A stretch of DNA of 32,000 bases. Origin: Thermoproteus tenax Kra 1 (GTDB taxonomy: Archaea > Thermoproteota > Thermoprotei > Thermoproteales > Thermoproteaceae). How positions within the stretch are numbered: the stretch's first letter is position 1; every line of letters begins with the position of its first letter. Under the pieces are notes generated by a model, which did not search any database, was not told the origin of the DNA, and worked only from the letters and a program-made list of their open reading frames with translations. The DNA is taken from contig NC_016070.1 in NCBI RefSeq assembly GCF_000253055.1, positions 90,001-122,000 on the forward strand, read 5' to 3'. The position numbers and the translations under genes were made by a program. Of the stretch, positions 6,586 to 32,000 are shown piece by piece.

Positions 6586-7111
6586 CCAAGTCCTACGCTA
6601 TATGTAAGCCTCGTTGTCCATTTTAAGATGGCGGCTAGCTCGATAGTCTTGCCCACGACGTACTTGGCGACGTTCCCTATCTAGCTTGAGGACTGATGCC
6701 TGCTCGCTTCTATGGAGAATATATGACTCCCTCCCCGCCCTAAAGGGCGAGGTTTGCTGTTTATGCTGGCGTACCGCCGCCGAGGCGCGACGGCGTTGCG
6801 TGGTGCATCTACACGGGCCTGAGCTTAGACAGTAGCTTGTACATTTTTTGGAATCAATCTTTAATGCATTTCTGATCTCAGGAAATTTCGGCGGGCCCCG
6901 ACACTTGCCGGGGGAACCTGAAATAATTTCGGCGAAAGACCGCTTGCAGCTCTAGGGATCCTAAAAAGGCGGCAGTTTTTGTTTCCTTTTGATGGGTCCG
7001 CCCCTTTGGGGTGAAGTAGGTCGTAAGCTTTTTAACTATAGCCAACATATTCTGACGACCCCCTGGAGGGGGCACATGAGCGGCCGCCACCTAGGCGGCT
7101 GCGGCCGCGAT
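6586..7111. other. about 0.5 kb region without a convincing ORF; candidate small RNA(s) or gene remnant
   Basis: Plus-strand T-runs at 6844-6849 and 6976-6980. GC hairpins at 7059-7072 (CCCCC-TGGA-GGGGG) and 7080-7102. The 10-nt direct repeat aatttcggcg occurs at 6884 and 6925. I could recognise no tRNA, RNase P or SRP signature. Confidence 0.25.
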
Positions 7112-7396
7112 CTAGGCGAAGTTCTCGATATACTCTAGCCAGAGCTCTAGGTCTTTTAGGTCGAGAGGCTCGACGTGTTCGCCCGATCGTATCTGTGCTT
7201 GAGTAAACCGTACGTATTCTCCCTCGCGCACGCCCCTCAGCACTATCAGCCTGTGCCCCTCCCCCTCTCCTATGCTTGCTGCCTCCTCTAACGACGGCGT
7301 CGTGAAAACGAGCTCTACATCGTTACCGTGCTCCTTTAAGACATAGCCGGGCGATGCCTCTACGTACCTCTTCAATTTGTCGTAGGTCACTCTCAT
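7112..7396 (-). CDS. hypothetical protein (94 aa)
   Basis: Clean ORF with ATG 7396, about 23 nt from the shared TATA element. I recognise no family. Confidence 0.6.
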   Translation of the reverse strand: MRVTYDKLKRYVEASPGYVLKEHGNDVELVFTTPSLEEAASIGEGEGHRLIVLRGVREGEYVRFTQAQIRSGEHVEPLDLKDLELWLEYIENFA

Positions 7397-22370: not shown

Positions 22371-22380
22371 TTTTTATATA
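22371..22380 (+). promoter_or_regulatory. TATA-like box (tttttatata) of the lysX-like/lysY/lysZ operon
   Basis: Its centre is about 22 nt upstream of ATG 22398. Confidence 0.55.
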
Positions 22381-22397
22381 GGCTCGGTCGGGCCCCT

Positions 22398-22466
22398 ATG
22401 GAATTTGCGGGGAAAGCGGGGCCAGCGGGGCGAAGATATATATCATCTCCGAGAAGCCCGAGCTAG
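22398..22466 (+). promoter_or_regulatory. 22-codon leader ORF (MEFAGKAGPAGRRYISSPRSPS) with three tandem GCGGGG+codon units; candidate -1 frameshift sensor
   Basis: GCGGGGAAA, GCGGGGCCA and GCGGGGCGA at 22407-22433. The leader frame is +1 relative to the downstream enzyme frame, which is open from 22382 but has no ATG, GTG or TTG before 22478. Confidence 0.55.
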
Positions 22467-23083
22467 GGGAGAGGCTTTTGGCCAAGTTTATATCGGCCCG
22501 GGGTCTCTCAGCCGAGATAGTTGGCCTTGAGGGCGGCATCTCCTCGCCGGAGGGGCTCGCCGTAATTAGGACTAGGAACCAGTACTTGGGAGCGACCTAC
22601 GCCGCTGTATTTAGGCGGGCTGTTAACCAGGCCCACGCCATTTATAATGCCTTGAACAGACTCTACTGGTTGCCCAAGTTCGGCCCGCCCTTCATGGCGT
22701 TCGTCGAAGAGGACGCCGTAGAGAAAGTTGAGTTCGGCCCGCCCTGGCTCTTGGCTACTGCGTGGCGCCTCGGGCTTGACAGCGTAGTGACGAGCGTTGA
22801 GGGGGCCAAGAGCGTGGTGGAGCACCGCTCCTACATGAGGAATCCCCTGGCCAAGGCCAGCGTAGTGATGCCCAAGCCCAGGGAGGTCAAAAGGGTCTTC
22901 GCCGTGGCAGGCATGTCCGACGGAATAGTGGACGAACTCTTGAGGGCCACAGGCTTGAGATACGCCGAGGTGGCCCTGGGCGTGTACGAGGACGGCGAGC
23001 GCGTCATAGACGTCGACCCCATCCCCGAGCTCGACGAGGCCCGCGCAAGGCTCTTGGCAGAATTTCTGGCGTCGGAGACATGA
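22398..23083 (+). CDS. short, divergent RimK/LysX/ArgX-like protein (expression appears to need a -1 shift from ATG 22398)
   Basis: The enzyme frame begins ...AKIYIISEKPELGERLLAKFISARGLSAEIV, which resembles a pre-ATP-grasp N-terminus. The C-terminus ...GLRYAEVALGVYEDGERVIDVDPIPEL resembles the end of an ATP-grasp. It occupies the first slot of the lysY-lysZ operon. It is only about 215 aa and lacks an obvious central ATP-grasp domain. Confidence 0.45.
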
Positions 23084-24135
23084 AGGTCTGTATAATAGGC
23101 GCATCGGGGTTCACGGGGGGCGAGCTCCTGAGAATACTTCTCAGCCACAGCGGAGTGGAGGTCGTCTGTGCCACGTCTAGGAAGTTCAAGGGCGAGTACG
23201 TCTACAGAGTGCACCCAAATCTGAGGGGGTTCACAAACCTCAAGTTTGTGGAGCCGAGCATAGACGTAGCCCTTAAGGCCGACGCCGTGTTCTTGGCGCT
23301 TCCTCACGGCGAGTCTGTCAAGTGGGTCCCCCAGCTCTACGAACACGGCCTGTACGTCGTAGATCTCAGCGCAGACTTCAGACTGAAGGACCCTAACGCC
23401 TACGTAGAGTGGTACAGATGGCCTCAGCCCCATCCCTACCCCGATCTGCTTAAGAGGGCCGTCTACGGGTTGCCCGAGTTGCACAGAGAGGAGCTCCCCG
23501 GCGCTAAGTTGATCGCATCGCCGGGCTGCACAGCGACGGCGTCCATCATGGCTCTGGCGCCTCTCGCAAAGGAGGGCCTCATAGACTCCGGCCCCATCGT
23601 CGTCGACGTCAAGATGGGCTCCTCGGGCGCCGGAGCAGAGGGCTCAGTGTTGGACATGCACAGCCACAGGACGTACGTGATAAGGCCCTACGAGCCCGTG
23701 CACCACAGACATACGGCTGAGGTCGAGCAAGAGCTCACTAGGCTGGCCGGCAGAGAGGTAAAAGTTGCCTACACGCCGCACGCAGTGGATGTTGTCAGAG
23801 GCATTCTCTCGACGGGGCACGTCTTTACTGAGAAGGACGTGGAGGAGCCCTCCCTCTGGAAGGCCTATCGATCTCTATACGGAGACAGCAAGTTCGTGAG
23901 AATAGTGAAGGACAAGATAGGGCTTGCGCGCTACCCGAATATAAAGTACATCTTGGGCACTAATATAGTGGACGTCGGCTTCGAGATAGATAGAAGGATG
24001 AGGAGGATAGTGGCGTTCGCAGCCCTAGACAACCTCGTCAGAGGCGCCGGCGGACAGGCAGTGCAAGCCTTCAATATAGCTGTGGGCTTCCCTGAGGACG
24101 AAGGACTTAGATATATACCGCCCCACCCGATATGA
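23080..24135 (+). CDS. lysY: [LysW]-aminoadipyl/glutamyl-phosphate reductase (ArgC family)
   Basis: [18 protein letters not shown] Rossmann start and the catalytic SPGCTATA motif. ATGA overlap with the upstream gene. Confidence 0.9.
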
Positions 24136-24917
24136 TAATAGTAGTCAAGTTGGGCGGCTCTGTAGTCTGCAAGGACCCCTCAAAGGCCATAGCGGACTTA
24201 GCCAAATACGCCGATGTGGCAGTCGTAGTACATGGGGGCGGCTGTATGGTGAACGAGGTGATGAAGGCGATGGGGCTCCAACCCAAGTTTCTCACGCATC
24301 CCGGCGGAGTAGTCAGCAGATTTACCGACTATGAGACATTGAGGGCCTTCGTGATGACCATGATGTGGATAAACAAGAACATAGTGGCCTCTCTGGCATC
24401 GCTCAGAGTGCCCGCGCTAGGTCTCTCAGGCGCCGACAACATGGTGTTGAGGGCTAAGAGGAAGGAGAAAGTGATAATAGTCGACGAGAGGGGCAGACAG
24501 AGGGTCGTCGATGGAGGCTACAGCGGCAAGATCACTGAGATAGACGTCAAAGCGCTTCTGCCGCCGCCGCTCAAAGTGTTGGCGCCGATCGCCGTATCGG
24601 AGAAGGGCGAGCTCCTGAATATAGATGGAGATCAAGTGGCCTTTGAGATAGCCTCGAGGCTCATGAGCAAACTGGTGATATTGAGCGACGTTGACGGTTT
24701 GATCATAGGGGGAAAAGTCGTGGGCAGACTCACGCCCCAGGAGGCCCTCGAGCTGGCCAAGTCGGACGAGGTCAAGGGAGGCATGAAGAGGAAGTTGATC
24801 GCGGCAGCCGAGGCGGCCAAAAGCGGAGTAGAGACCATAATATACAACGGTCTCGTCGAGTCACCCATAGAGAAGGCCCTCGCCGGAGCGGGTACTCATA
24901 TTATACCTAGTTCCTAA
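24132..24917 (+). CDS. lysZ: [LysW]-aminoadipate/glutamate kinase (ArgB family)
   Basis: IVVKLGGSV and VVVHGGG amino-acid-kinase motifs. ATGA overlap with lysY. Confidence 0.9.
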
Positions 24918-24961
24918 TTAAAGGGAAGAAAAATTTAAATACTATTTAAAAAAGGACTAAT

Positions 24962-25147
24962 ATGGCTAAAGTAAAGCTAACGGCAGTATGTAAAGTATGT
25001 GGTAGCGAGATAGAGCTTCCCGAGGACGTGATGGACGGCGAGATCACTTCGTGTCCCACGTGCGGCACACGTTATATTGTCAGACTGAAGGGCGAGAAAG
25101 TCGAGCTGGAGGAGTTCAAGGGGGACGTGGAGGACTACGGAGAATAA
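24962..25147 (+). CDS. lysW: amino-group carrier protein LysW
   Basis: 61 aa. Zinc ribbon CKVCGS...CPTCG and an acidic C-terminal tail ending EDYGE (LysW-type EDWGE). It has its own TATA about 25 nt upstream. Confidence 0.9.
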   Translation: MAKVKLTAVCKVCGSEIELPEDVMDGEITSCPTCGTRYIVRLKGEKVELEEFKGDVEDYGE

Positions 25148-25165
25148 TCCTCGCTTTTTATCAAC

Positions 25166-25175
25166 ATTTTAATAC
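25166..25175 (+). promoter_or_regulatory. TATA-like box (attttaatac) of argG
   Basis: Its centre is about 23-24 nt upstream of ATG 25194. Confidence 0.55.
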
Positions 25176-25193
25176 GAGCTATTAAGCCCCTCC

Positions 25194-25232
25194 ATGCCCT
25201 CGGGGCGAGAAAGATCAGTAGAATCGCGTTAG
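25194..25232 (+). promoter_or_regulatory. 12-codon leader ORF (MPSGRERSVESR) with UCG GGG CGA; candidate -1 frameshift sensor for arginine
   Basis: ATG 25194 is +1 relative to the argG frame. The G-run 25202-25205 is followed by the Arg codon CGA. 3 of the 12 leader codons are Arg. Confidence 0.55.
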
Positions 25233-26404
25233 CGTATTCGGGCGGTTTGGACACCACTGTTGCGATAAAGTGGCTATCCGAGAAGTATAACGCTGAGGTC
25301 ATAACAGTGACTGTAGATGTGGGCCAGGAGGAGGACTTCCAAGAGGTCGAGTCTAGAGCGTATAAAGCGGGCGCGGCGAAACACTACACTATAGACGCCA
25401 AGAGGGAATTCGCCGAGGAATATATAGCTAGAGCGGTGCTGATGAACGCGATGTACGAGGGGAAATATCCCCTCGGGACAGCCCTCGCGAGGCCTCTGAT
25501 TGTGTCGAAGACCGTCGAGGTAGCAAGGCGCGAGGGGGCAGACGCAATAGCCCATGGGAGCACCAGTAAGGGCAACGACCAAGTGCGTTTCGATGTGACG
25601 GCCAAGGCGTTGGCCCCCGATCTAGAGATCTTGGCGCCAGCCAGAGTGTGGGGCATGGGGAGGGAGCAAGAGATCGACTACGCGAGGAGACACGGCATAC
25701 CTATACCGGAGGCCCACAAGAAGTACAGCATCGACGAAAACTTGTGGACGCGCTCCATTGAGGGAGGGCCTGTCGACGACCAGAGAGCTGAGCCGCCCGA
25801 GGACGCCTTTAAGTGGACTGTACAGCCCGAGAAGGCGCCTGACCAGCCGACATATGTCGAGATAGAGTTCTCCAACGGGCTCCCTAGGTCGATAAACGGA
25901 GAGCGCGTGGACATGCTCCAAGCAGTCAGAGCGTTGAACAACGTGGGAGGTCTGAACGGCGTTGGGCGCATTGACCACATTGAGAGCAGGCTCGTGGGAT
26001 TCAAGAGCCGCGAAGTATACGAGGCGCCGGCGGCGGTGATACTCTACGAGGCCCACCGCGATTTAGAGAAGTTGGTCCTCACGCCGAGGGAGCTACGGTT
26101 TAAACACACTGTGTTGGACCCCCTATGGGCAGATCTAGTGTATCAAGGCCTGTGGGTTGAACCGTTGAGGCAGTCGCTGGAGGCCGCCGCCAGAGAGATG
26201 GAAAGATGGGTGGACGGCTGGGTGAAAGTTAAGCTGTATAGAGGGTCTCTACAGGTGGTCGCCCGCGACTCTAAATACGGAACATACAGCAGAGATATAG
26301 CGGATTACTCCACGGGGTGGTATCCCTCAGACGAGGAAGCGCGCGGCTTCATAGAGATGTGGTCGCTCCACAGCCTCCTGGCATTGAAAAAACGTGGTCA
26401 ATAA
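25194..26404 (+). CDS. argG: argininosuccinate synthase (body in frame from 25202; appears to need a -1 shift from ATG 25194)
   Basis: RIALAYSGGLDTTVAIKWL PP-loop N-terminus, plus the GSTSKGNDQVRF and ENLWTRS(I)EGG motifs. The track start TTG 25247 would delete the AYSGG part of the ATP-binding motif. There is no in-frame ATG, GTG or TTG upstream of it. Confidence 0.9.
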
Positions 26405-26554
26405 ATTCAAAGCTAAATATTATAATTCCAATAATAAATACAGATATAGAATAAAAAGATTTTAATATTATTAAAAATAAAAATAGTTTGCAAATTTAGA
26501 TATTACTCTATATAAGCGATGAAAGAGATATAAAGAGGATGAAAGGGGTCTTCG

Positions 26555-26725
26555 ATGGGGTCAGGATCGCCCAAGCTGAACACTGTGGTGTGTCCCAACT
26601 GCAAACGCCCCGTGAGACCGAAGGAGTGTAGCAGAAAAAGCTTGTCGAAAAGATACGTGTTAGTGACGTACTGTTGCCCGAGGTGTGGTATAGAGCTGAT
26701 CACTGAACATATAGAGGTTACATAA
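26555..26725 (+). CDS. small zinc-ribbon protein (56 aa; below the ORF-track size cutoff)
   Basis: MGSGSPKLNTVVCPNCKRPV...YCCPRCGIELITEHIEVT has two CPxC pairs about 27 residues apart. ATG 26555 lies about 24 nt after gatataaagagg. Confidence 0.4.
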   Translation: MGSGSPKLNTVVCPNCKRPVRPKECSRKSLSKRYVLVTYCCPRCGIELITEHIEVT

Positions 26726-26780
26726 AGTCAGCGAGGATTATATACTAGCCACCTATTTTTAAAAACAGATCGGCCCGACT

Positions 26781-27323
26781 GTGGAGATTCTGTTGCTCCT
26801 CCACGGTTCCAAGGATCCCAGATATCGCGAATCAGTAGAGAGATTCGCGGGGAGGCTCGGGCTCAAGTACGCGTTCCTCGAGGGCTTTGAGCCGAGACCC
26901 GGCGTATTATATCTCCCCATCTTCGTCGCCCCAGGCGCCGACTACAGAAAAGCTCTGTCGTTGGCAAACCTCAAGGCGCCGCCATTGATTAGATGGCCGG
27001 GCTTCGCCGACTATCTGAGATCGCTTAGGGCAGACGTCTATATATTTCACGGAAGCGACGAGCCTGAGTACATAAACGAGGTCGCCTCATTGGGGCTCAG
27101 ATTCGCTTTCATCGAGGGCGAGCCCTCTCTGAAGTCTGTGGGCTGTAGAGGGCTTGGGGCGCCTGTAGTGTTGACGCGCGGCATTATCTACGACAGAGCC
27201 TCCGAGTTGTGGAGGGAGGCGGGCTGTCGCTACGAGCTTCTGCCGCCACTCTTCGAACAGGAGGGCTTCGTACAGTATTTCTCCTCAGCGCTCAGCTCGT
27301 TGTTGGCCAAGATTCAACAATAG
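26781..27323 (+). CDS. CbiX/SirB-like sirohydrochlorin chelatase (small type)
   Basis: 180 aa. The (V)EILLLLHGSKDP start resembles the CbiX HGS motif, and there is a second IFHGSDEP repeat. GTG start about 22 nt after ctatttttaaaaac. Confidence 0.5.
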   Translation: MEILLLLHGSKDPRYRESVERFAGRLGLKYAFLEGFEPRPGVLYLPIFVAPGADYRKALSLANLKAPPLIRWPGFADYLRSLRADVYIFHGSDEPEYINEVASLGLRFAFIEGEPSLKSVGCRGLGAPVVLTRGIIYDRASELWREAGCRYELLPPLFEQEGFVQYFSSALSSLLAKIQQ

Positions 27324-28284
27324 CGGCGATCTGTCTGCCGACCTCCTCAGTGGTGGCCCGCCCTCCTATGTCCGGCGTAGCTACCCCGCGCCTCAAGGCC
27401 TCCTCAACGGCGCCTCTAACAGCGTTTGCAGCGTCTTGGCGGCCCATCCATTCGAACATCATTGCGGCGGACAATATGGTCGCTATCGGATTGGCTATCC
27501 CCTTTCCAGCTATGTCGAAGGCCGCCCCGTGGATCGGCTCGAACATGGCCTTTTTGTCTCCAATATTCGCCGAGGGCGCCAGCCCCAAGCTACCTGCCAC
27601 TTGTGCGGCGAGATCGGTGAGGATATCCCCGTATTGGTTCGTCGTCAACACAACGTCGAAGCGCGAGGGATTCCTTACAAGCTCCATCGCTGCTGCGTCT
27701 ACGTACATTTCCTCCACTTGAAGCCCATCGAGCTCCCCCCTGGCCACATCCCTAAAGAAGGCGTCGACCACCCTCAACACATTGGACTTTGTGACGATAG
27801 TCACTTTCCGCCTCCTCATTTCGGCGTACCTCCTCGCCACTCTAGCCACCCTCGCCGTGCCCTCCCTCGTTATGACCTTCAGAGCAATCGCCACATCGCC
27901 CACTCTATATTCGGCGCCCACATAGACATCTTCGACGTTCTCCCTCACGAAGACGCAATCGATGGGCTTGACAGCAGGCACGCCGGGGAGGTTCTTTGCA
28001 GGCCTTATGTTGGCGTACAACACGTACTTCATCCTTATCGCGGACGTTACATCGTAGGCGGTCTCGCCCACGGGGCCCTTCAGTACGGCGTCGGCGGAGT
28101 CCACGATCTTCCACGCCTCGTCGGGCATAGGTTTGCCATACTTCCTCGCGGCTACGTCGCCCGCCTCCACGACCTTTATATCGAGCGGTATTGAGAAACG
28201 CCGCGCGGCCGCCTCTATCACCTTCAGCGTGGCCGACACTACCTCGGGCCCTATGCCGTCGCCCGGGATTACGGCAAGCTTCAT
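27292..28284 (-). CDS. homoisocitrate / 3-isopropylmalate dehydrogenase (beta-decarboxylating dehydrogenase family)
   Basis: MKLAVIPGDGIGPEV start, and the NQYGDILTDLAA and EPIHGAAFDIAGKGIANP motifs. ATG 28284 lies about 24 nt after TTTAAAA. The track start 28314 overlaps that TATA. Confidence 0.9.
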   Translation of the reverse strand: MKLAVIPGDGIGPEVVSATLKVIEAAARRFSIPLDIKVVEAGDVAARKYGKPMPDEAWKIVDSADAVLKGPVGETAYDVTSAIRMKYVLYANIRPAKNLPGVPAVKPIDCVFVRENVEDVYVGAEYRVGDVAIALKVITREGTARVARVARRYAEMRRRKVTIVTKSNVLRVVDAFFRDVARGELDGLQVEEMYVDAAAMELVRNPSRFDVVLTTNQYGDILTDLAAQVAGSLGLAPSANIGDKKAMFEPIHGAAFDIAGKGIANPIATILSAAMMFEWMGRQDAANAVRGAVEEALRRGVATPDIGGRATTEEVGRQIAAIVESWPTTS

Positions 28285-28402
28285 AACGCCAGAAAATGTG
28301 TGAGTTTTAAACATAGAGCGCGCCCATCTGGGGACTCGGGGGCCCCAGCCACCTAGCTCGATCGCCTAAGGAGCTCGACAAGCCGATGTTCTATAGAGCC
28401 GC

Positions 28403-29068
28403 CTATCGGCATAGGGCCTCCGCGAGTAGGCCCGAGAGCTTGAGCGCCTCCTCCCTCCTTAAGTACCGCCCCCTCCTAGGCACCACAAGGGCCCTCTCTG
28501 TCCCGTCTGTCAGACTCGCCGGTATGACGGCGAGGACGCTCTCGAGAGACAAGAGCTCGTCTAAGGCAGGGCCCAGAGCTCTGGCGTAGCTCTCAGGCAA
28601 GATTGCCAAGACTGCCCCGAACCTCTTCAGTAAGGCTTGCGTCCTCTCCGGGACCCCCCTCTCCAGAGACCACCTGGCCAGCTCATCGCGGCGTAGAGCG
28701 TTTAAGGTTGCCTCGTAGGGGATAATGGGCTCATCCCAGCGGATCAAGCCGTATCGAGCGCTTACGATGAACAGCTCAGCTCTGGCACATTGTCGCACTC
28801 TATAGAAGATCGACCTCACTTGCGCGAAGGATCCACCGTACATCTCTACGGCGGGCTTAATAAAGCTCTGTAGCGCCTCCCTATATGTGTTCTCCCTCTC
28901 CAGGTCGAAGCCGGGCACGCCCAAGCCTCTGACCTTCAGCGCCTCCACGACGGAGCTCCAGTCCACTTTCTTCCTCTTAGTGCAGTGGGCCAGTATCAAT
29001 AGATCCCTAGACTTGAACCTCTCCCTCAACTGTTCCGCCGTTATGTCCTCTATTGAGACGAGAGGCAT
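28403..29068 (-). CDS. hypothetical protein (DUF6884-like pattern by eye)
   Basis: 221 aa. LILAHCTKRKK...PAVEMYGGSF...LFIVSARYGLIRWDEPIIPYEATL resembles the C..K / Y.G / SA.YGL / PY signature, recalled from memory. It has its own TATA-like box. Confidence 0.45.
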   Translation of the reverse strand: MPLVSIEDITAEQLRERFKSRDLLILAHCTKRKKVDWSSVVEALKVRGLGVPGFDLERENTYREALQSFIKPAVEMYGGSFAQVRSIFYRVRQCARAELFIVSARYGLIRWDEPIIPYEATLNALRRDELARWSLERGVPERTQALLKRFGAVLAILPESYARALGPALDELLSLESVLAVIPASLTDGTERALVVPRRGRYLRREEALKLSGLLAEALCR

Positions 29069-29116
29069 CGACCAAAAGCCTCTACTATATTTTAGCTCTG
29101 GGGCGCTACAGCTGAA

Positions 29117-30534
29117 CTAAGGGGCGGAGGGCGCTTGGAGGGAGCCCAGCTGTTTCAACACTATGTTGGTCAACGTGGATTTAACGCCTCTGACCGACCT
29201 TATATCCTCTATTATTCTGTTCAATTCCTCAGCGTTGGAGGCCACCACTCTTGCGACGATATCGAAATCCCCAGTGACCTCTCCCACGTTGACGACGCCG
29301 CTAATCGTGGACACTCTGCGGGCCACCGAGGTGGTGTATACGTTTTCGTCCACTTTTATCCAGATGAACGCCTCAATATGTTTGTTTACATACGCCTTAT
29401 ATCTCACGCCCGTGACCTTCTCCAAGATCTCCAAGAGGTCCTCGTCTCTAAGCCTCCTCGCGTTCGTGGATTTGAGCTCCTCCACGACTTTGGCCAGAGT
29501 CTCCTCGTCTACCTTCACGCCGAGTCTCTCAAGCCGGTGGGCCACGGCGCGCCTTCCGCTATATTTGTCTAGGGAGAAGTCCCTCGACCTCCCCACGACC
29601 TCGGGCGGAAACGGCTCGTAGGTCTCTGGATTCGCCAGTACACCTGCTTGGTGGACGCCGGCCTTGTGAGTGAACACATTGTCGCCAGTTATGGGGAAGG
29701 TGGGCATCTGGGCGATCCCGCTGGCCGCCTCCACCAGCGAGGCCAAGTAGGGGAGCTTCGCCATATCGATGAGCTTGACGCCCTTGTGGTAGTAGTAGGC
29801 CGCGACGAAGACTTGGAGAGGGGTGATACCTGCTCTCTCCCCGAGGCCGTTCACTGTCGTGTGAACTACGTCGGCTCCGCCCTCGGTCGCAGCCATTGAG
29901 TTGGCCACGGCCATCCCTAAGTCGTTGTGGGCGTGTATATCTAGTCCGACCCCAGGCACGGCCTCCTTCAGCTTCGAGAAGAGTTGGCGCGCTCTATCGG
30001 GAGTGAGTATCCCCACTGTGTCGGCAATGCTCACTCTGTCCGCGCCTGCGTCTCGCGCAGTTTTTACCACTTGTATAAGGTAGTCGAGGTCTGCCCTAGT
30101 GGCGTCTTCGGCTGTGAACCTCACCTTCACGCCGGCGCCTCTCGCGAACTCCACGTGTTCGGCGATTATGGCCAAAGCCTCCTCTCTGGTCTTCCTGTGT
30201 TTGTGCTTCAGATGTATATCGCTGACGCCGTAGAAGATGGCGACTCTGTCGGGCTCAAGCGACGTCGCGTTCTCTATATCTGATTTGACGGATCTGCTGT
30301 GGACGACTATCTCGCTCTTGATTTCGCCGTCTCGCTTCAGAGCTATTATCTTCGAGATAGCCGATCTGACGTCGGGCGCCACGTTTGGGTCGCCCACCTC
30401 TATTAAGTGGACGCCTACATCCGACAGAGACTTCGCTATCTTGATCCTCCATTCCTCAGAGAATATAACGCCCGGAGTCTGCTCGCCCTCTCTCAGCGTC
30501 GAGTCGAGAATTTTTATGCTTTCCCCGAACTCAT
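29117..30534 (-). CDS. homocitrate synthase (LeuA/HCS family) with C-terminal RAM domain; body in frame with GTG 30553, but the likely initiation is ATG 30534 plus a -1 shift
   Basis: LDSTLREGEQTPG and HAHNDLGMAVANS...NGLGERAGI form a DRE-TIM core. The last ~90 aa (EAFIWIKVDENV...GDFDIVARVVASNAEELNRIIEDIRSVRGV) form an Lrp/AsnC-type RAM domain instead of a LeuA dimerisation domain. GTG 30553 abuts the TATA box. Confidence 0.9.
30514..30534 (-). promoter_or_regulatory. 6-codon leader ORF (MSSGKA) with UCG GGG AAA; candidate -1 frameshift sensor for lysine
   Basis: On the minus strand: ATG 30534, TCG 30528-26, GGG 30525-23 (G-run 30526-30523), AAA 30522-20 and TAA 30516-14. The ATG is +1 relative to the HCS frame. 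Confidence 0.55.
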
Positions 30535-30553
30535 GGCGGCTGAACCGACCCAC

Positions 30554-30561
30554 TATATAAA
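30554..30561 (-). promoter_or_regulatory. TATA box (TTTATATA on the minus strand) of the homocitrate synthase gene
   Basis: Its centre is about 23-24 nt upstream of ATG 30534. It directly abuts GTG 30553, so that GTG is unlikely to lie within the transcript. Confidence 0.55.
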
Positions 30562-30596
30562 CCTAACTCGCGGAGGAGAGTCTATATAGAAAATAG

Positions 30597-31085
30597 CTAC
30601 TTCGAGCCCCTTATCTTCAGATATTCAGTCAAGCCGCCGGCCTTGAGGATCTCGAGCGCAAGCCCCGACAGCGGCTTGCCCTTTATCACCTCGCCGGTGG
30701 ACAAGTTCACCACCTCGCCTGTCTCAACACGGACGACGACCTCATCGCCGTCTCTGACCCTCCCCCTCGCCGGGGCCTGCAACACTGGCAGTCCCACGTT
30801 GATGGCGTTCCGGAAGAAGATTCTGGCGAACGACTCGGCCACTACGGCCAATACACCGGCCCCCTTCAGTGCCGTGGCCGCTTGCTCGCGGCTGCTCCCC
30901 ATCCCGAAGGCTCTGCCGGCCACTATCACGGCCCCCTTAGCCTTCTTCGGGAACTCGGGATCTAGAGGCTCCATGGCGTGTTGGCCCAGGACGGCCGGGT
31001 CAGTATATACTAGATATCTGGCAGGTATAATTACGTCGGTATCTATCTTGTCGCCGTAGACCAAGGCCCTCCCCCTTATTTCCAT
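30597..31085 (-). CDS. 3-isopropylmalate/homoaconitate dehydratase small subunit (LeuD/HacB family)
   Basis: 162 aa. [29 protein letters not shown] and [13 protein letters not shown] motifs. No large-subunit gene lies next to it in this window. Confidence 0.9.
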
Positions 31086-31157
31086 AGCCGCTGAGCCTAT
31101 ATAGCTTTTAAAAGTTCCGTCCTTCAGGGAGAAGGCCTATATATAGAGAGGCAAATC

Positions 31158-31167
31158 TTTAAATATA
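31158..31167 (+). promoter_or_regulatory. TATA-like box (tttaaatata) of ilvB
   Basis: Its centre is about 22-23 nt upstream of ATG 31185. Confidence 0.55.
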
Positions 31168-31184
31168 GGTTAAATAGTGCCCCT

Positions 31185-31247
31185 ATGGATTCGGGGGTTA
31201 CATCGGGGCTCGAGGGGATCGCCCCAATAGGGTGGTCGACAGAGTAA
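31185..31247 (+). promoter_or_regulatory. 20-codon leader ORF (MDSGVTSGLEGIAPIGWSTE) with three G-run sites followed by Val, Leu and Ile codons; candidate -1 frameshift sensor
   Basis: TCGGGGGTT at 31191-99, TCGGGGCTC at 31203-11 and GAGGGGATC at 31212-20. The leader frame is +1 relative to the ilvB frame, which is open from 31178. Confidence 0.5.
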
Positions 31248-32000
31248 TCGACACACTAAGGGAGCTGAAAGTAAGACATATCCTGGGGATCACAGGCGGT
31301 TCAATAATGGCGTTGTTCGACGCAGCGTATTTCGTAGACGACATAGACGTAATAATGTTCAGACACGAGCAGGGCGCTGCACATGCAGCCGAGGGCTACG
31401 CCAGAGTTGCCAAGAGGCCCGCCGTGGTTGCTGCAACCAGCGGCCCCGGCGCCACCAACTTGGTGACTGGGCTGACGGACGCCTACATGGACTCAGTCCC
31501 CGTAGTGGCCATAACTGGGCAAGTGGCCACGTGGGTCTTCGGAAGAGACGGATTCCAAGAGACGGACATACTGGGCGTGGCCACGCCTATAACTAAATGG
31601 GTCTATCAAGTGAGGAGGCCGGAGGAGGCATCGCCAGCAGTCAGGATCGCCTACGAGATATCGGCATTGGGGAGACCGGGCCCGACTTTAGTGGATCTGC
31701 CCAGAGATATACAGATACAGACTCCGCGAGGGGAGGCCGCTATTCCGATAAATGTGACCAAGTTTATACCTCCAAGGCCTCGCCACGAGGATATAGCGAG
31801 GGCGGCGAAGATAATAATTGAGGCCCAGAGACCCGTAGTCCTCGCGGGCGGCGGAGTCCTCTGGTCGGGCGCCACGAGAGAGGTGATAGAGCTCGCCGAG
31901 AGGATAGGAGCGCCTATAGTTTCAACTCTTCCTGGGAAGGCCGCAATACCTCACAACCACCCGTTGTATCTAGGGCCCGCCGGAATGCACGGAAGGGCCG
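31185..32000 (+). CDS. ilvB: acetolactate synthase large subunit (ThDP enzyme), 5' partial, runs off the window
   Basis: The frame containing GTG 31232 reads VVDRVIDTLRELKVRHILGITGGSIMALFDA...HEQGAAHAAEGYARV...SGPGATNLVTGL...DSVPVVAITGQV. There is no stop before 32000, so it is absent from the ORF track. The start is either GTG 31232 or ATG 31185 plus a -1 shift. Confidence 0.85.

Follow-up and report, generated by a model that had tools for sequence, protein, structure and literature searches.

Introduction

In the bacterial attenuators of trp, his, leu, thr, ilvGMEDA and ilvBN, codons of a short leader open reading frame (ORF) report the charging of the cognate tRNA and thereby decide whether a terminator or an antiterminator hairpin forms in a 5' untranslated region (UTR), which requires transcription and translation to be coupled. 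Here we describe leaders of another build in a 32,000-nucleotide stretch of the Thermoproteus tenax Kra 1 genome (NC_016070.1, positions 90,001 to 122,000 of the forward strand; the whole stretch is called the window below, and positions are counted from its first letter). Four of its amino-acid-biosynthesis genes, namely a lysX-like gene, argG, the homocitrate synthase (HCS) gene and ilvB, begin with an ATG that is out of frame with the enzyme and is followed by a run of G and a codon for a product of the pathway. These leaders are probably amino-acid-responsive -1 ribosomal frameshift leaders, in which tRNA-Gly would slip in the P site while a "hungry" codon occupies the A site. Unlike attenuators, they have no UTR; leader and enzyme ORF overlap, and it is the reading frame that would change. 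The amino-acid sets of the attenuators (Thr and Ile for thr; Leu, Val and Ile for ilv; Leu for leu) are equal to those encountered here.

Two programmed frameshifts act as sensor and effector at once. Antizyme, a polyamine sensor, is one such element of a metabolic feedback circuit (PMC5009743). In bacterial prfB, which encodes release factor 2 (RF2), a short first ORF is likewise followed by a P-site slip at a slowly filled A site, and the ligand that the A site lacks is encoded by the gene itself, which makes the shift both sensor and effector (a class described in PMC5009743). Antizyme differs from the present leaders in being eukaryotic, with a +1 shift at a stop codon and polyamines acting on the nascent peptide and the ribosome. 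The prfB shift is also +1; it takes place where RF2 reads a stop codon, has a Shine-Dalgarno-like stimulator and belongs to a single bacterial gene whose mRNA has a leader; in the leaders described here, the shift would be -1, a sense codon would be read by an aminoacyl-tRNA, and several biosynthetic operons are involved.

Leftward (-1) frameshifting at hungry codons in starved Escherichia coli was reportedly observed by Gallant and Lindsley in 1992 (cited in PMC8211752). In that organism, a vacant A site at a limiting codon allows the peptidyl-tRNA to re-pair upstream (PMC5009743), as is proposed here; it is, however, an error phenomenon on reporter genes, whereas in the present leaders it would be conserved, programmed and confined to defined sites. 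As for the use of hungry-codon shifting to make trans-frame proteins under starvation, the 2016 review by Atkins states that "no examples are known" (PMC5009743). The first-pass annotation of the window, made from the letters alone, knew of no amino-acid-sensing frameshift leaders on archaeal biosynthetic genes, and our full-text literature searches also found no description of them, an account outside the searched literature being possible; a 2021 review of recoding in Archaea mentions neither Pyrobaculum nor Thermoproteus. In fucA1 of Sulfolobus solfataricus, a classical A AAA AAT heptamer in mid-gene joins two long ORFs, and to our knowledge no sensing of a metabolite or tRNA has been proposed for it. 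What fucA1 has in common with the leaders is a crenarchaeal -1 frameshift needed for the full-length enzyme (PMC8211752); it is a single gene, whereas the leaders occur in several families.

Materials and Methods

The four window sites were read directly, with every frame translated. They were compared with two sets of orthologues: (i) an argG-anchored scan with one genome per species, giving 7 Thermoproteus, 8 Pyrobaculum and 6 Vulcanisaeta, Caldivirga or Thermocladium loci as well as other archaea and bacteria, and (ii) an ilvB-anchored metagenome scan, which added 28 contigs. Labels such as L007 and L010 denote loci or contigs compared with the window. About 650 kb of Thermoproteaceae sequence flanking three anchor genes was covered, with six gene families in scope; 143 pooled sites correspond to 96 unique 27-nt contexts. 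A motif-agnostic scan was run over 647 kb of Thermoproteaceae loci and required an AT-rich box ahead of an ATG whose 0-frame ORF is short, combined with a long ORF in a shifted frame that lacks any start. Chance probabilities of agreement between sensor codon and pathway product were based on local amino-acid frequencies. RNA structure was examined with RNAalifold on 14 argG leaders, argG being the one family so tested.

Results

Anatomy of the Window Leaders

The leaders read ATG 22398 GAA TTT GCG GGG AAA GCG GGG CCA GCG GGG CGA (lysX-like), ATG 25194 CCC TCG GGG CGA (argG), ATG 30534 AGT TCG GGG AAA GCA TAA (HCS) and ATG 31185 GAT TCG GGG GTT ACA TCG GGG CTC GAG GGG ATC (ilvB). Each GGG is preceded by a further G; we refer to G GGG as the slip site and to the codon behind it as the sensor codon, after the roles proposed below. 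The first-pass annotation had attributed to all four genes a TATA box at conventional spacing before an out-of-frame ATG, an enzyme ORF out of register with that ATG, a G-run with a pathway-product codon, and early termination in the 0 frame. All of this was borne out: the TATA 8-mers begin 25-27 nt before the four ATGs, as they do at conventional genes of the window, the enzyme frame is -1 at every site, the four leaders read as described, and the 0 frame closes after 6, 12, 20 or 22 codons (6-26 codons when the orthologues are included).

The same annotation had found no usable in-frame start in argG and the lysX-like gene, which proved correct, as neither has an ATG, GTG or TTG ahead of conserved residues. 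In argG, the first canonical start is TTG 25247, which lies within the AYSGG-L motif, and in the lysX-like gene the -1 frame contains none back to the stop at 22379. The sole in-frame start of HCS, GTG 30553, directly abuts the TATA box (30561-30554), as had been pointed out, and it is missing from the orthologues. The need for a change of frame is a direct observation at these genes, as are the conserved anatomy and the match of sensor codon to pathway described in the next section.

Across the recoded genes, the TATA 8-mer begins 25-30 nt (mode 27) before the ATG; at most conventional genes this distance is 25-29 nt. In archaea, leaderless transcription characteristically has its promoter box 22-24 nt from the start; such transcription was first found in Pyrobaculum aerophilum (PMC6028130). 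From the TATA spacing, we infer that transcription begins at or beside the out-of-frame ATG. Inspection of starts also confirmed the earlier statement that lysW, lysK, the dehydrogenase and the leuD-like (small aconitase-type) gene are conventional; the window neighbors with such starts are lysK, lysY, lysZ, lysW, the DUF6884 gene, the isocitrate/homoisocitrate-type dehydrogenase gene and that of the small aconitase-type subunit. Normal starts were likewise found in Pyrobaculum argF, argH, hom, both aconitase subunits and GDH.

Conservation of the Slip Site and the Sensor Codon

The succession of TATA box, out-of-frame ATG, NNG GGG, product codon, early stop and -1-frame enzyme recurs in more than 40 Thermoproteus and Pyrobaculum loci. 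These come from independent assemblies, including the genome records of P. aerophilum IM2, P. islandicum and P. oguniense and dozens of metagenome-assembled genomes or metagenome contigs, and in every orthologue from the scans no stop interrupts the -1 frame from the first G-run onwards. The enzyme always occupies the -1 frame, and canonical in-frame starts are not conserved among the orthologues. Two matters that the first-pass annotation had put forward for checking are settled by these loci in its favor: the G-run lengths are genuine, being equal in more than 40 loci from unrelated projects, and orthologous 5' regions retain the out-of-frame ATG together with GGG and the G before it, while the sensor amino acid follows the pathway, thrC and leuA (see below) included.

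All 96 unique contexts have G directly before the P-site codon and GG as the first two bases of that codon (GGG in 94, GGA in 2), so that re-pairing of the P-site tRNA in the -1 frame is possible at each. The two bases before the G-run vary (TCG, GCG, ACG, CTG, GAG, GTG, CCG, CAG, CGG, AAG). The codon that would be entered after a slip is always G+XY, i.e., Glu, Ala, Gly or Asp. As a separate observation, the codon before GGG is mostly TCG, with C at -2 in 73 of the 96 contexts.

The sensor codon keeps its amino acid through synonymous change (Val as GTT, GTC or GTA; Leu as CTC or CTT; Ile as ATC, ATT or ATA), and the -1-frame residues built from the same bases differ among species (e.g., GGYIGAR, GGQFGAR and GGRFGAR). 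Since the amino acid is kept and the nucleotides are not, we regard this as a signature of selection on 0-frame decoding combined with a -1 slippery context. The tally of sensors is 17 Lys, 17 Pro and 17 Arg for the lysX operon; 17/17 Arg for argG; 6 Lys for HCS, with P. aerophilum beyond the tally; 22 Val, 22 Leu and 13 Ile for ilvB; and 5 Thr and 5 Ile for thrC, for which later loci gave more leaders. Codon and pathway agree perfectly in all six families, and it is from this sequence agreement that the putative sensing is read. The probability that the sensor equals the pathway product by chance is ~1e-8 for the four genes and ~5e-12 for the six families; chance is excluded as the source of these sites.

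Most sensor codons are rare among their synonyms, with shares of 3-5% for CGA (Arg), 7-13% for CCA (Pro), 23-28% for AAA (Lys) and 12-19% for ACA (Thr), and in the 96 contexts the third base is never G and the first never T. At the sequence level, an A-site tRNA that can become limiting is therefore indicated, the codons being those of the product, mostly rare and never ending in G. Codons ending in G are presumably open to two isoacceptors and would be less sensitive to starvation, which would account for the lack of G at the third base.

The motif-agnostic scan retrieved 23 genes with the -1 architecture, 23/23 with G GGG, and six noise matches with the corresponding +1 architecture. In the Thermoproteaceae loci, A AAN, T TTN, C CCN and G GGH gave only noise as alternative slippery motifs. 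A number of candidates from relaxed scans were discarded: the Trp-rich upstream ORF at L098:1402 is followed by a crotonase-like gene (by inspection) with its own in-frame ATG, and the matches at L085:9447, L095:17696, L015:2055 and L102/L106:1515, together with antisense "ATG GGG TGA" matches, lie within genes or antisense or are ordinary starts. A role of the G-runs as a G-quadruplex was rejected, as argG, HCS and leuA carry just one G-run each.

Two Further Families, thrC and leuA

Generic scans of the loci added thrC (threonine synthase; TIGR00260, 269 bits), which opens a thrC-aspartokinase-asd operon. In Pyrobaculum the leader is ATG NNG GGG ATT TCG GGG ACA, giving Ile and Thr sensors, and in Thermoproteus-like loci it is ATG CYT TCG GGG ACA ATA, i.e., one Thr unit and, behind it, an Ile codon that has no G-run. 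The ThrC of P. islandicum is annotated from a TTG lying upstream of its own TATA box.

The leuA gene (2-isopropylmalate synthase) was also added, with a Leu sensor in the form ATG GNT TCG GGG CTC: ATG GAT TCG GGG CTC GTC GGG TAA in Thermoproteus and ATG GCT TCG GGG CTC GTA CAA TAA in P. aerophilum. The same leader is implied for T. tenax, P. arsenaticum and P. islandicum by the YGFGAR/YGVGAR N-termini of their database proteins. The NCBI entry for P. aerophilum leuA carries the remark "with possible unusual start codon," and the UniProt entry LEU1_PYRAE starts MASGLVQIKIFD, a chimera in which the 0-frame leader is joined to the -1 frame. Until now, the anomaly was visible only as an annotation problem of this kind.

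The LysX/ArgX Operon

Sensor codons for Lys, Pro and Arg are common to all 17 orthologous LysX/ArgX leaders, in the order AAA, CCA, CGA in Thermoproteus and, permuted, CCA, AAA, CGA in Pyrobaculum. The Pro sensor makes sense because the pathway yields ornithine, which the ornithine cyclodeaminases of T. tenax can turn into proline (PMC3189178). The name lysX-like, given in the first-pass annotation, holds for the predicted fold and found no support in sequence profiles: no Pfam or NCBIfam model matches the protein significantly, while its AlphaFold model (22430-23083, plus strand; pLDDT 94.8) has ArgX and LysX structures as its best matches. The top Foldseek hits were 3vpb (ArgX), 5k2m (LysX/ArgX) and 3vpd (LysX), with TM scores of 0.81-0.84 and E values of 1e-14 to 1e-16, and the model is a shortened ArgX/LysX ATP-grasp fold with a TM score of 0.84 to both 3vpb and 5k2m. 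The gene was found only in Thermoproteus and Pyrobaculum, where its database entries are truncated "hypothetical" proteins.

A second Pro/Lys/Arg leader, with its own TATA box, was found in P. oguniense TE7 at L010:3410 (within L010:3360-3549), past an insertion of ~480 nt between the lysX-like gene and lysY. Its -1 frame comprises 38 codons, and the TGA that ends it overlaps the lysY start (ccATGA), which suggests that only shifted ribosomes would reach lysY, in a frameshift-dependent form of translational coupling. With this extra copy, the leader behaves as a portable regulatory module.

The argG and Homocitrate Synthase Leaders

In 17/17 Thermoproteus and Pyrobaculum loci, NCG GGG CGA precedes argG, whose enzyme ORF lies in the -1 frame and lacks an in-frame start. 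Two contexts of initiation occur. In some loci, argG has its own TATA box, as in the window, and in Pyrobaculum and one Thermoproteus locus it is operonic after lysW; there the ATG is made by the last lysW codons, GAC TAT GGC GAG TAA, and has GGAGGA 2 nt upstream within the lysW 3' end. The slip-and-sensor unit has therefore been kept across two different initiation contexts. In Sulfolobales, Desulfurococcales, Ignisphaera and Korarchaeia, argG has an ordinary in-frame ATG 2-5 codons ahead of VLAYSGG. A CCCC...GGGG hairpin around the ATG is present in the window and was set aside as a candidate element, since it is not kept upstream in orthologues.

Elsewhere in the Thermoproteales, argG is out of frame at L015:9987 (Caldivirga), L016:5773, L018 and L029 (Vulcanisaeta) and L014, the last with no recognizable start. 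The Caldivirga gene reads ATG GAT AAC CTG GGA CGA; Vulcanisaeta has ...(C/T)TA AAC CGG, possibly a slip on A AAC ahead of an Arg codon; and Thermocladium (L017) has CTG GAA CGA.

In HCS, the unit is TCG GGG AAA in Thermoproteus loci and CAG GGG AAA in P. aerophilum IM2. Residues ~366-458 of the enzyme form a LysM/RAM-like (AsnC_trans_reg) domain (NF040947, E = 8e-18), and so HCS may also be feedback-controlled at the protein level. Between HCS and the isocitrate/homoisocitrate-type dehydrogenase lies a gene for a DUF6884 protein of 221 aa (28403-29068, minus strand), apparently in one transcription unit with them.

The ilvB Leader and Its Variants

Pyrobaculum-like contigs have ATG TCG GGG GTA (NNN) TCG GGG CTY ... 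NNG GGG ATT before ilvB. No complete Thermoproteus or Pyrobaculum-like ilvB leader in the tabulation lacks the Val or the Leu sensor, and most have the Ile unit. In the window, positions 31214-31225 (GGGGATCGCCCC) combine the third G-run with a downstream CCCC, a possible 4-bp GC hairpin whose nucleotide sequence is conserved among Thermoproteus ilvB leaders.

Contig L096 has a possible G GGA variant of the slip site at ilvB, as does Caldivirga at argG. Variant 5' ends of ilvB or leuA were seen in L099 and L105 (~33-34% GC) and in L097, L098, L100, L101 and L109 (~45% GC), where a Shine-Dalgarno-like GGTGG or GGTGAT precedes ATG GAA (CTT/TTG/TTA), in some cases with a further ...TTG GAA ATC; the enzyme is in the -1 frame in these lineages, and L099 and L105 lack an in-frame start. 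By sequence resemblance, "G GAA + cognate codon" in these lineages and in Thermocladium argG may represent the same device in altered form. The possible variants in other Thermoproteales (G GGA, A AAC and G GAA with a cognate codon) are each known from few sequences.

Other Features of the Window

Coordinates are collected in Table 1. An Rfam search over the window gave no match except the Pyrobaculum antisense RNA asR3 (RF02793, 71 bits) at 7058-7113 on the minus strand, which is away from the leaders and adjoins the divergent gene pair 7396/7442. The window contains no tRNA genes.

Table 1. Positions of the leader elements and their enzyme ORFs in the window, and of the thrC and leuA leaders in other loci. 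Slip sites and sensors are putative.
Feature	Position	Strand	Remarks
TATA box TTTATATA, lysX-like/lysY/lysZ/lysW operon	22373..22380	+	begins 25 nt upstream of leader ATG
LysX/ArgX operon 0-frame leader ORF MEFAGKAGPAGRRYISSPRSPS	22398..22466	+	22 codons, stop TAG 22464-22466
LysX/ArgX operon, three tandem slip-and-sensor units	22409..22433	+	G GGG AAA (Lys) 22409-22415; G GGG CCA (Pro) 22418-22424; G GGG CGA (Arg) 22427-22433; from sequence, conserved in orthologous leaders
LysX/ArgX-like ATP-grasp ORF, -1 frame	22409..23083	+	open from first slip site; core from ~22433
TATA box TTTTAATA, argG	25167..25174	+	begins 27 nt upstream of leader ATG
argG 0-frame leader ORF MPSGRERSVESR	25194..25232	+	12 codons, stop TAG 25230-25232
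argG slip site G GGG and Arg sensor CGA	25202..25208	+	from sequence and orthologues
Argininosuccinate synthase ORF GARKISRIALAYSGGLDTT..., -1 frame	25202..26404	+	NCBIfam
TATA box TTTATATA, homocitrate synthase	30554..30561	-	begins 27 nt upstream of leader ATG
Homocitrate synthase 0-frame leader ORF MSSGKA	30514..30534	-	6 codons
Homocitrate synthase slip site G GGG (30526-30523) and Lys sensor AAA (30522-30520)	30520..30526	-	
Homocitrate synthase ORF GESIKILDSTLREGEQ..., -1 frame	29117..30526	-	NCBIfam; C-terminal RAM/LysM-like domain
TATA box TTTAAATA, ilvB	31158..31165	+	begins 27 nt upstream of leader ATG
ilvB 0-frame leader ORF MDSGVTSGLEGIAPIGWSTE	31185..31247	+	20 codons, stop TAA 31245-31247
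ilvB, three slip-and-sensor units	31193..31220	+	G GGG GTT (Val) 31193-31199; G GGG CTC (Leu) 31205-31211; G GGG ATC (Ile) 31214-31220; from sequence and orthologues
Acetolactate synthase large-subunit ORF, -1 frame	31193..32000	+	NCBIfam; runs off window end
thrC leaders	L007:6773, L008:2785, L011:7157, L012:7177	-	
thrC leader	L115:10094	+	
thrC leaders	L114 and L116, ~50-170 nt upstream of 10001		
leuA leaders	L083:15192, L084:15195, L111:9942		L111 is P. aerophilum IM2

Discussion

Proposed Mechanism

We propose that ribosomes initiate at the 5'-proximal, out-of-frame ATG and that, after 2-4 codons, tRNA-Gly would sit in the P site on a GGG preceded by G, with the product codon in the A site, usually a rare or single-isoacceptor codon (CGA, CCA, AAA, ACA, or GTN/CTY/ATY). 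With plentiful cognate aminoacyl-tRNA, the sensor would be decoded, translation would terminate a few codons on and no enzyme would be made. When the aminoacyl-tRNA is scarce, the A site would stay vacant, peptidyl-tRNA-Gly would re-pair from GGG to the GGG one base back, and the enzyme would be synthesized. The outcome would thus be a kinetic race at the A site between decoding of the sensor and the P-site slip. Tandem units would constitute an OR gate, responding to Lys, Pro or Arg in the LysW operon and to Val, Leu or Ile in ilvB. Once the frame has changed, the remaining G-runs are met as C GGG or A GGG and no longer offer a slippery site, and the new frame would therefore be locked.

Held against known classes of recoding, the leaders agree with the prfB and antizyme class in that a short first ORF ends soon after the shift site and the product requires the shift. 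With canonical -1 signals they agree less: the heptamer X XXY YYZ is absent, only the P-site G GGG being conserved. Because the A-site codons (AAA, CGA, CCA, GTN, CTY, ATY, ACA) are unable to re-pair at -1 (GAA, GCG, GCC, and so on), this would not be classical tandem slippage. As in attenuators, there is a leader ORF with codons for the regulated amino acids; mutually exclusive terminator and antiterminator structures were not found, the leader overlapping the enzyme ORF and the argG leaders showing no conserved structure.

Several points weigh against the proposed frameshifting. (i) The entire case has been built by comparing sequences. (ii) G GGG is an unusual slippery sequence. (iii) At the first site, the peptidyl-tRNA would be only 3-4 residues long, a length that favors drop-off in bacteria. 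(iv) The stimulatory hairpin or pseudoknot that canonically lies 5-9 nt downstream was not found in the argG leaders; for 14 of them, RNAalifold gave a consensus of -1.7 kcal/mol with no conserved structure and no helix near the slip site. (v) Downstream of its G-runs, ilvB of the window contains an in-frame GTG (31232), which the first-pass annotation did not mention, and a few ilvB orthologues also have an in-frame GTG past the leader; GTG 31232 is not a conserved start, because the codon is GTC, GTT or GTA in most orthologues. (vi) The third (Ile) unit of ilvB is degenerate or lost in some Pyrobaculum-like lineages, reading A GGG ATT or A GGG ATA in L089, L090, L092, L103 and L110 and being degenerate or lost also in L085, L095 and L102. 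(vii) Caldivirga ilvB and leuA have conventional starts.

Alternative Explanations

The reading-frame requirement and the lack of a stimulatory RNA structure at argG would also suit a -1 shift that is required yet constitutive, whether as a means of fixed low expression or as an evolutionary relic, and insensitive to amino-acid supply. We consider this unlikely, as it leaves unexplained why the codon after the slip site specifies the product in six families, why that identity survives synonymous change, why rare single-isoacceptor codons are chosen and why the units are multiplied.

The short ATG ORF could instead be a regulatory upstream ORF, with stalling at its sensor codons modulating enzyme synthesis that begins, with no frameshift, at an in-frame non-canonical codon such as ATA, ATT, ATC or CTG or by re-initiation. 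In some orthologues AAG ATH does follow soon after the site, a few have an in-frame GTG or TTG (the window ilvB at 31232, thrC of L116, argG of L017), and the "unusual start codon" remark on P. aerophilum leuA is of the same tenor. However, no near-cognate start is fixed in position, and Pyrobaculum thrC has none ahead of its zinc-ribbon cysteines. The invariant G at -1 and the -1 frame that is open from the first G-run onwards are not explained by such an ORF; a leaderless mRNA offers internal initiation no upstream ribosome-binding site, and the promoter-defined distance fits the ATG and not an in-frame codon. These features make separate initiation of the enzyme quite improbable.

RNA polymerase slippage, a known recoding route at homopolymers (PMC5009743), would bring the ATG into frame if one G were added in part of the transcripts, which holds for every site. 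The runs are, however, only 4 G long (5 where the sensor begins with G), whereas homopolymers of at least 7 bases are typical, and where three runs stand in tandem, more than one insertion would put the enzyme out of frame once more. In addition, the identity of the sensor has no place in such a model and the Pyrobaculum argG sites lie deep within an operon transcript, so that we give slippage of the polymerase very little credence. Sequencing or assembly errors at homopolymers, or pseudogenes, are rejected as a practically negligible alternative: one added G per site would indeed yield ordinary starts, but the same disruption and run lengths are common to more than 40 independently assembled loci, finished genome records among them, and the enzyme ORFs are intact, conserved and above NCBIfam cut-offs.

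Implications

Amino-acid-responsive -1 frameshifting is the favored account, as no other reading covers all the features, and we class the leaders as putative sensor-effector frameshifting of the prfB and antizyme type in which the ligand (aminoacyl-tRNA) and the direction are new and several pathways are served. We further lean towards the view that the Thermoproteales run a regulon-wide translational attenuation assembled from portable "slip site + product codon" modules on leaderless or translationally coupled mRNAs, with OR logic where they stand in tandem and with variant slip sites in relatives. The leaders also explain why the N-termini of these genes are truncated, over-extended or chimeric in public databases. 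The rule of NNG GGG plus a codon is simple enough for the controlling amino acids to be predicted from it, and the element could be reused as a compact, thermostable synthetic sensor.

If the proposal is true, the leaders would be the first case in which hungry-codon frameshifting is put to programmed use in nature, and they would constitute a new class of archaeal amino-acid sensor. Archaea with leaderless mRNAs have no room for riboswitches, T-boxes or attenuators, and their amino-acid sensing is little understood. The leaders would sense supply within ~10-35 nucleotides, without RNA structure or a protein factor, the ribosomal A site itself being the sensor.

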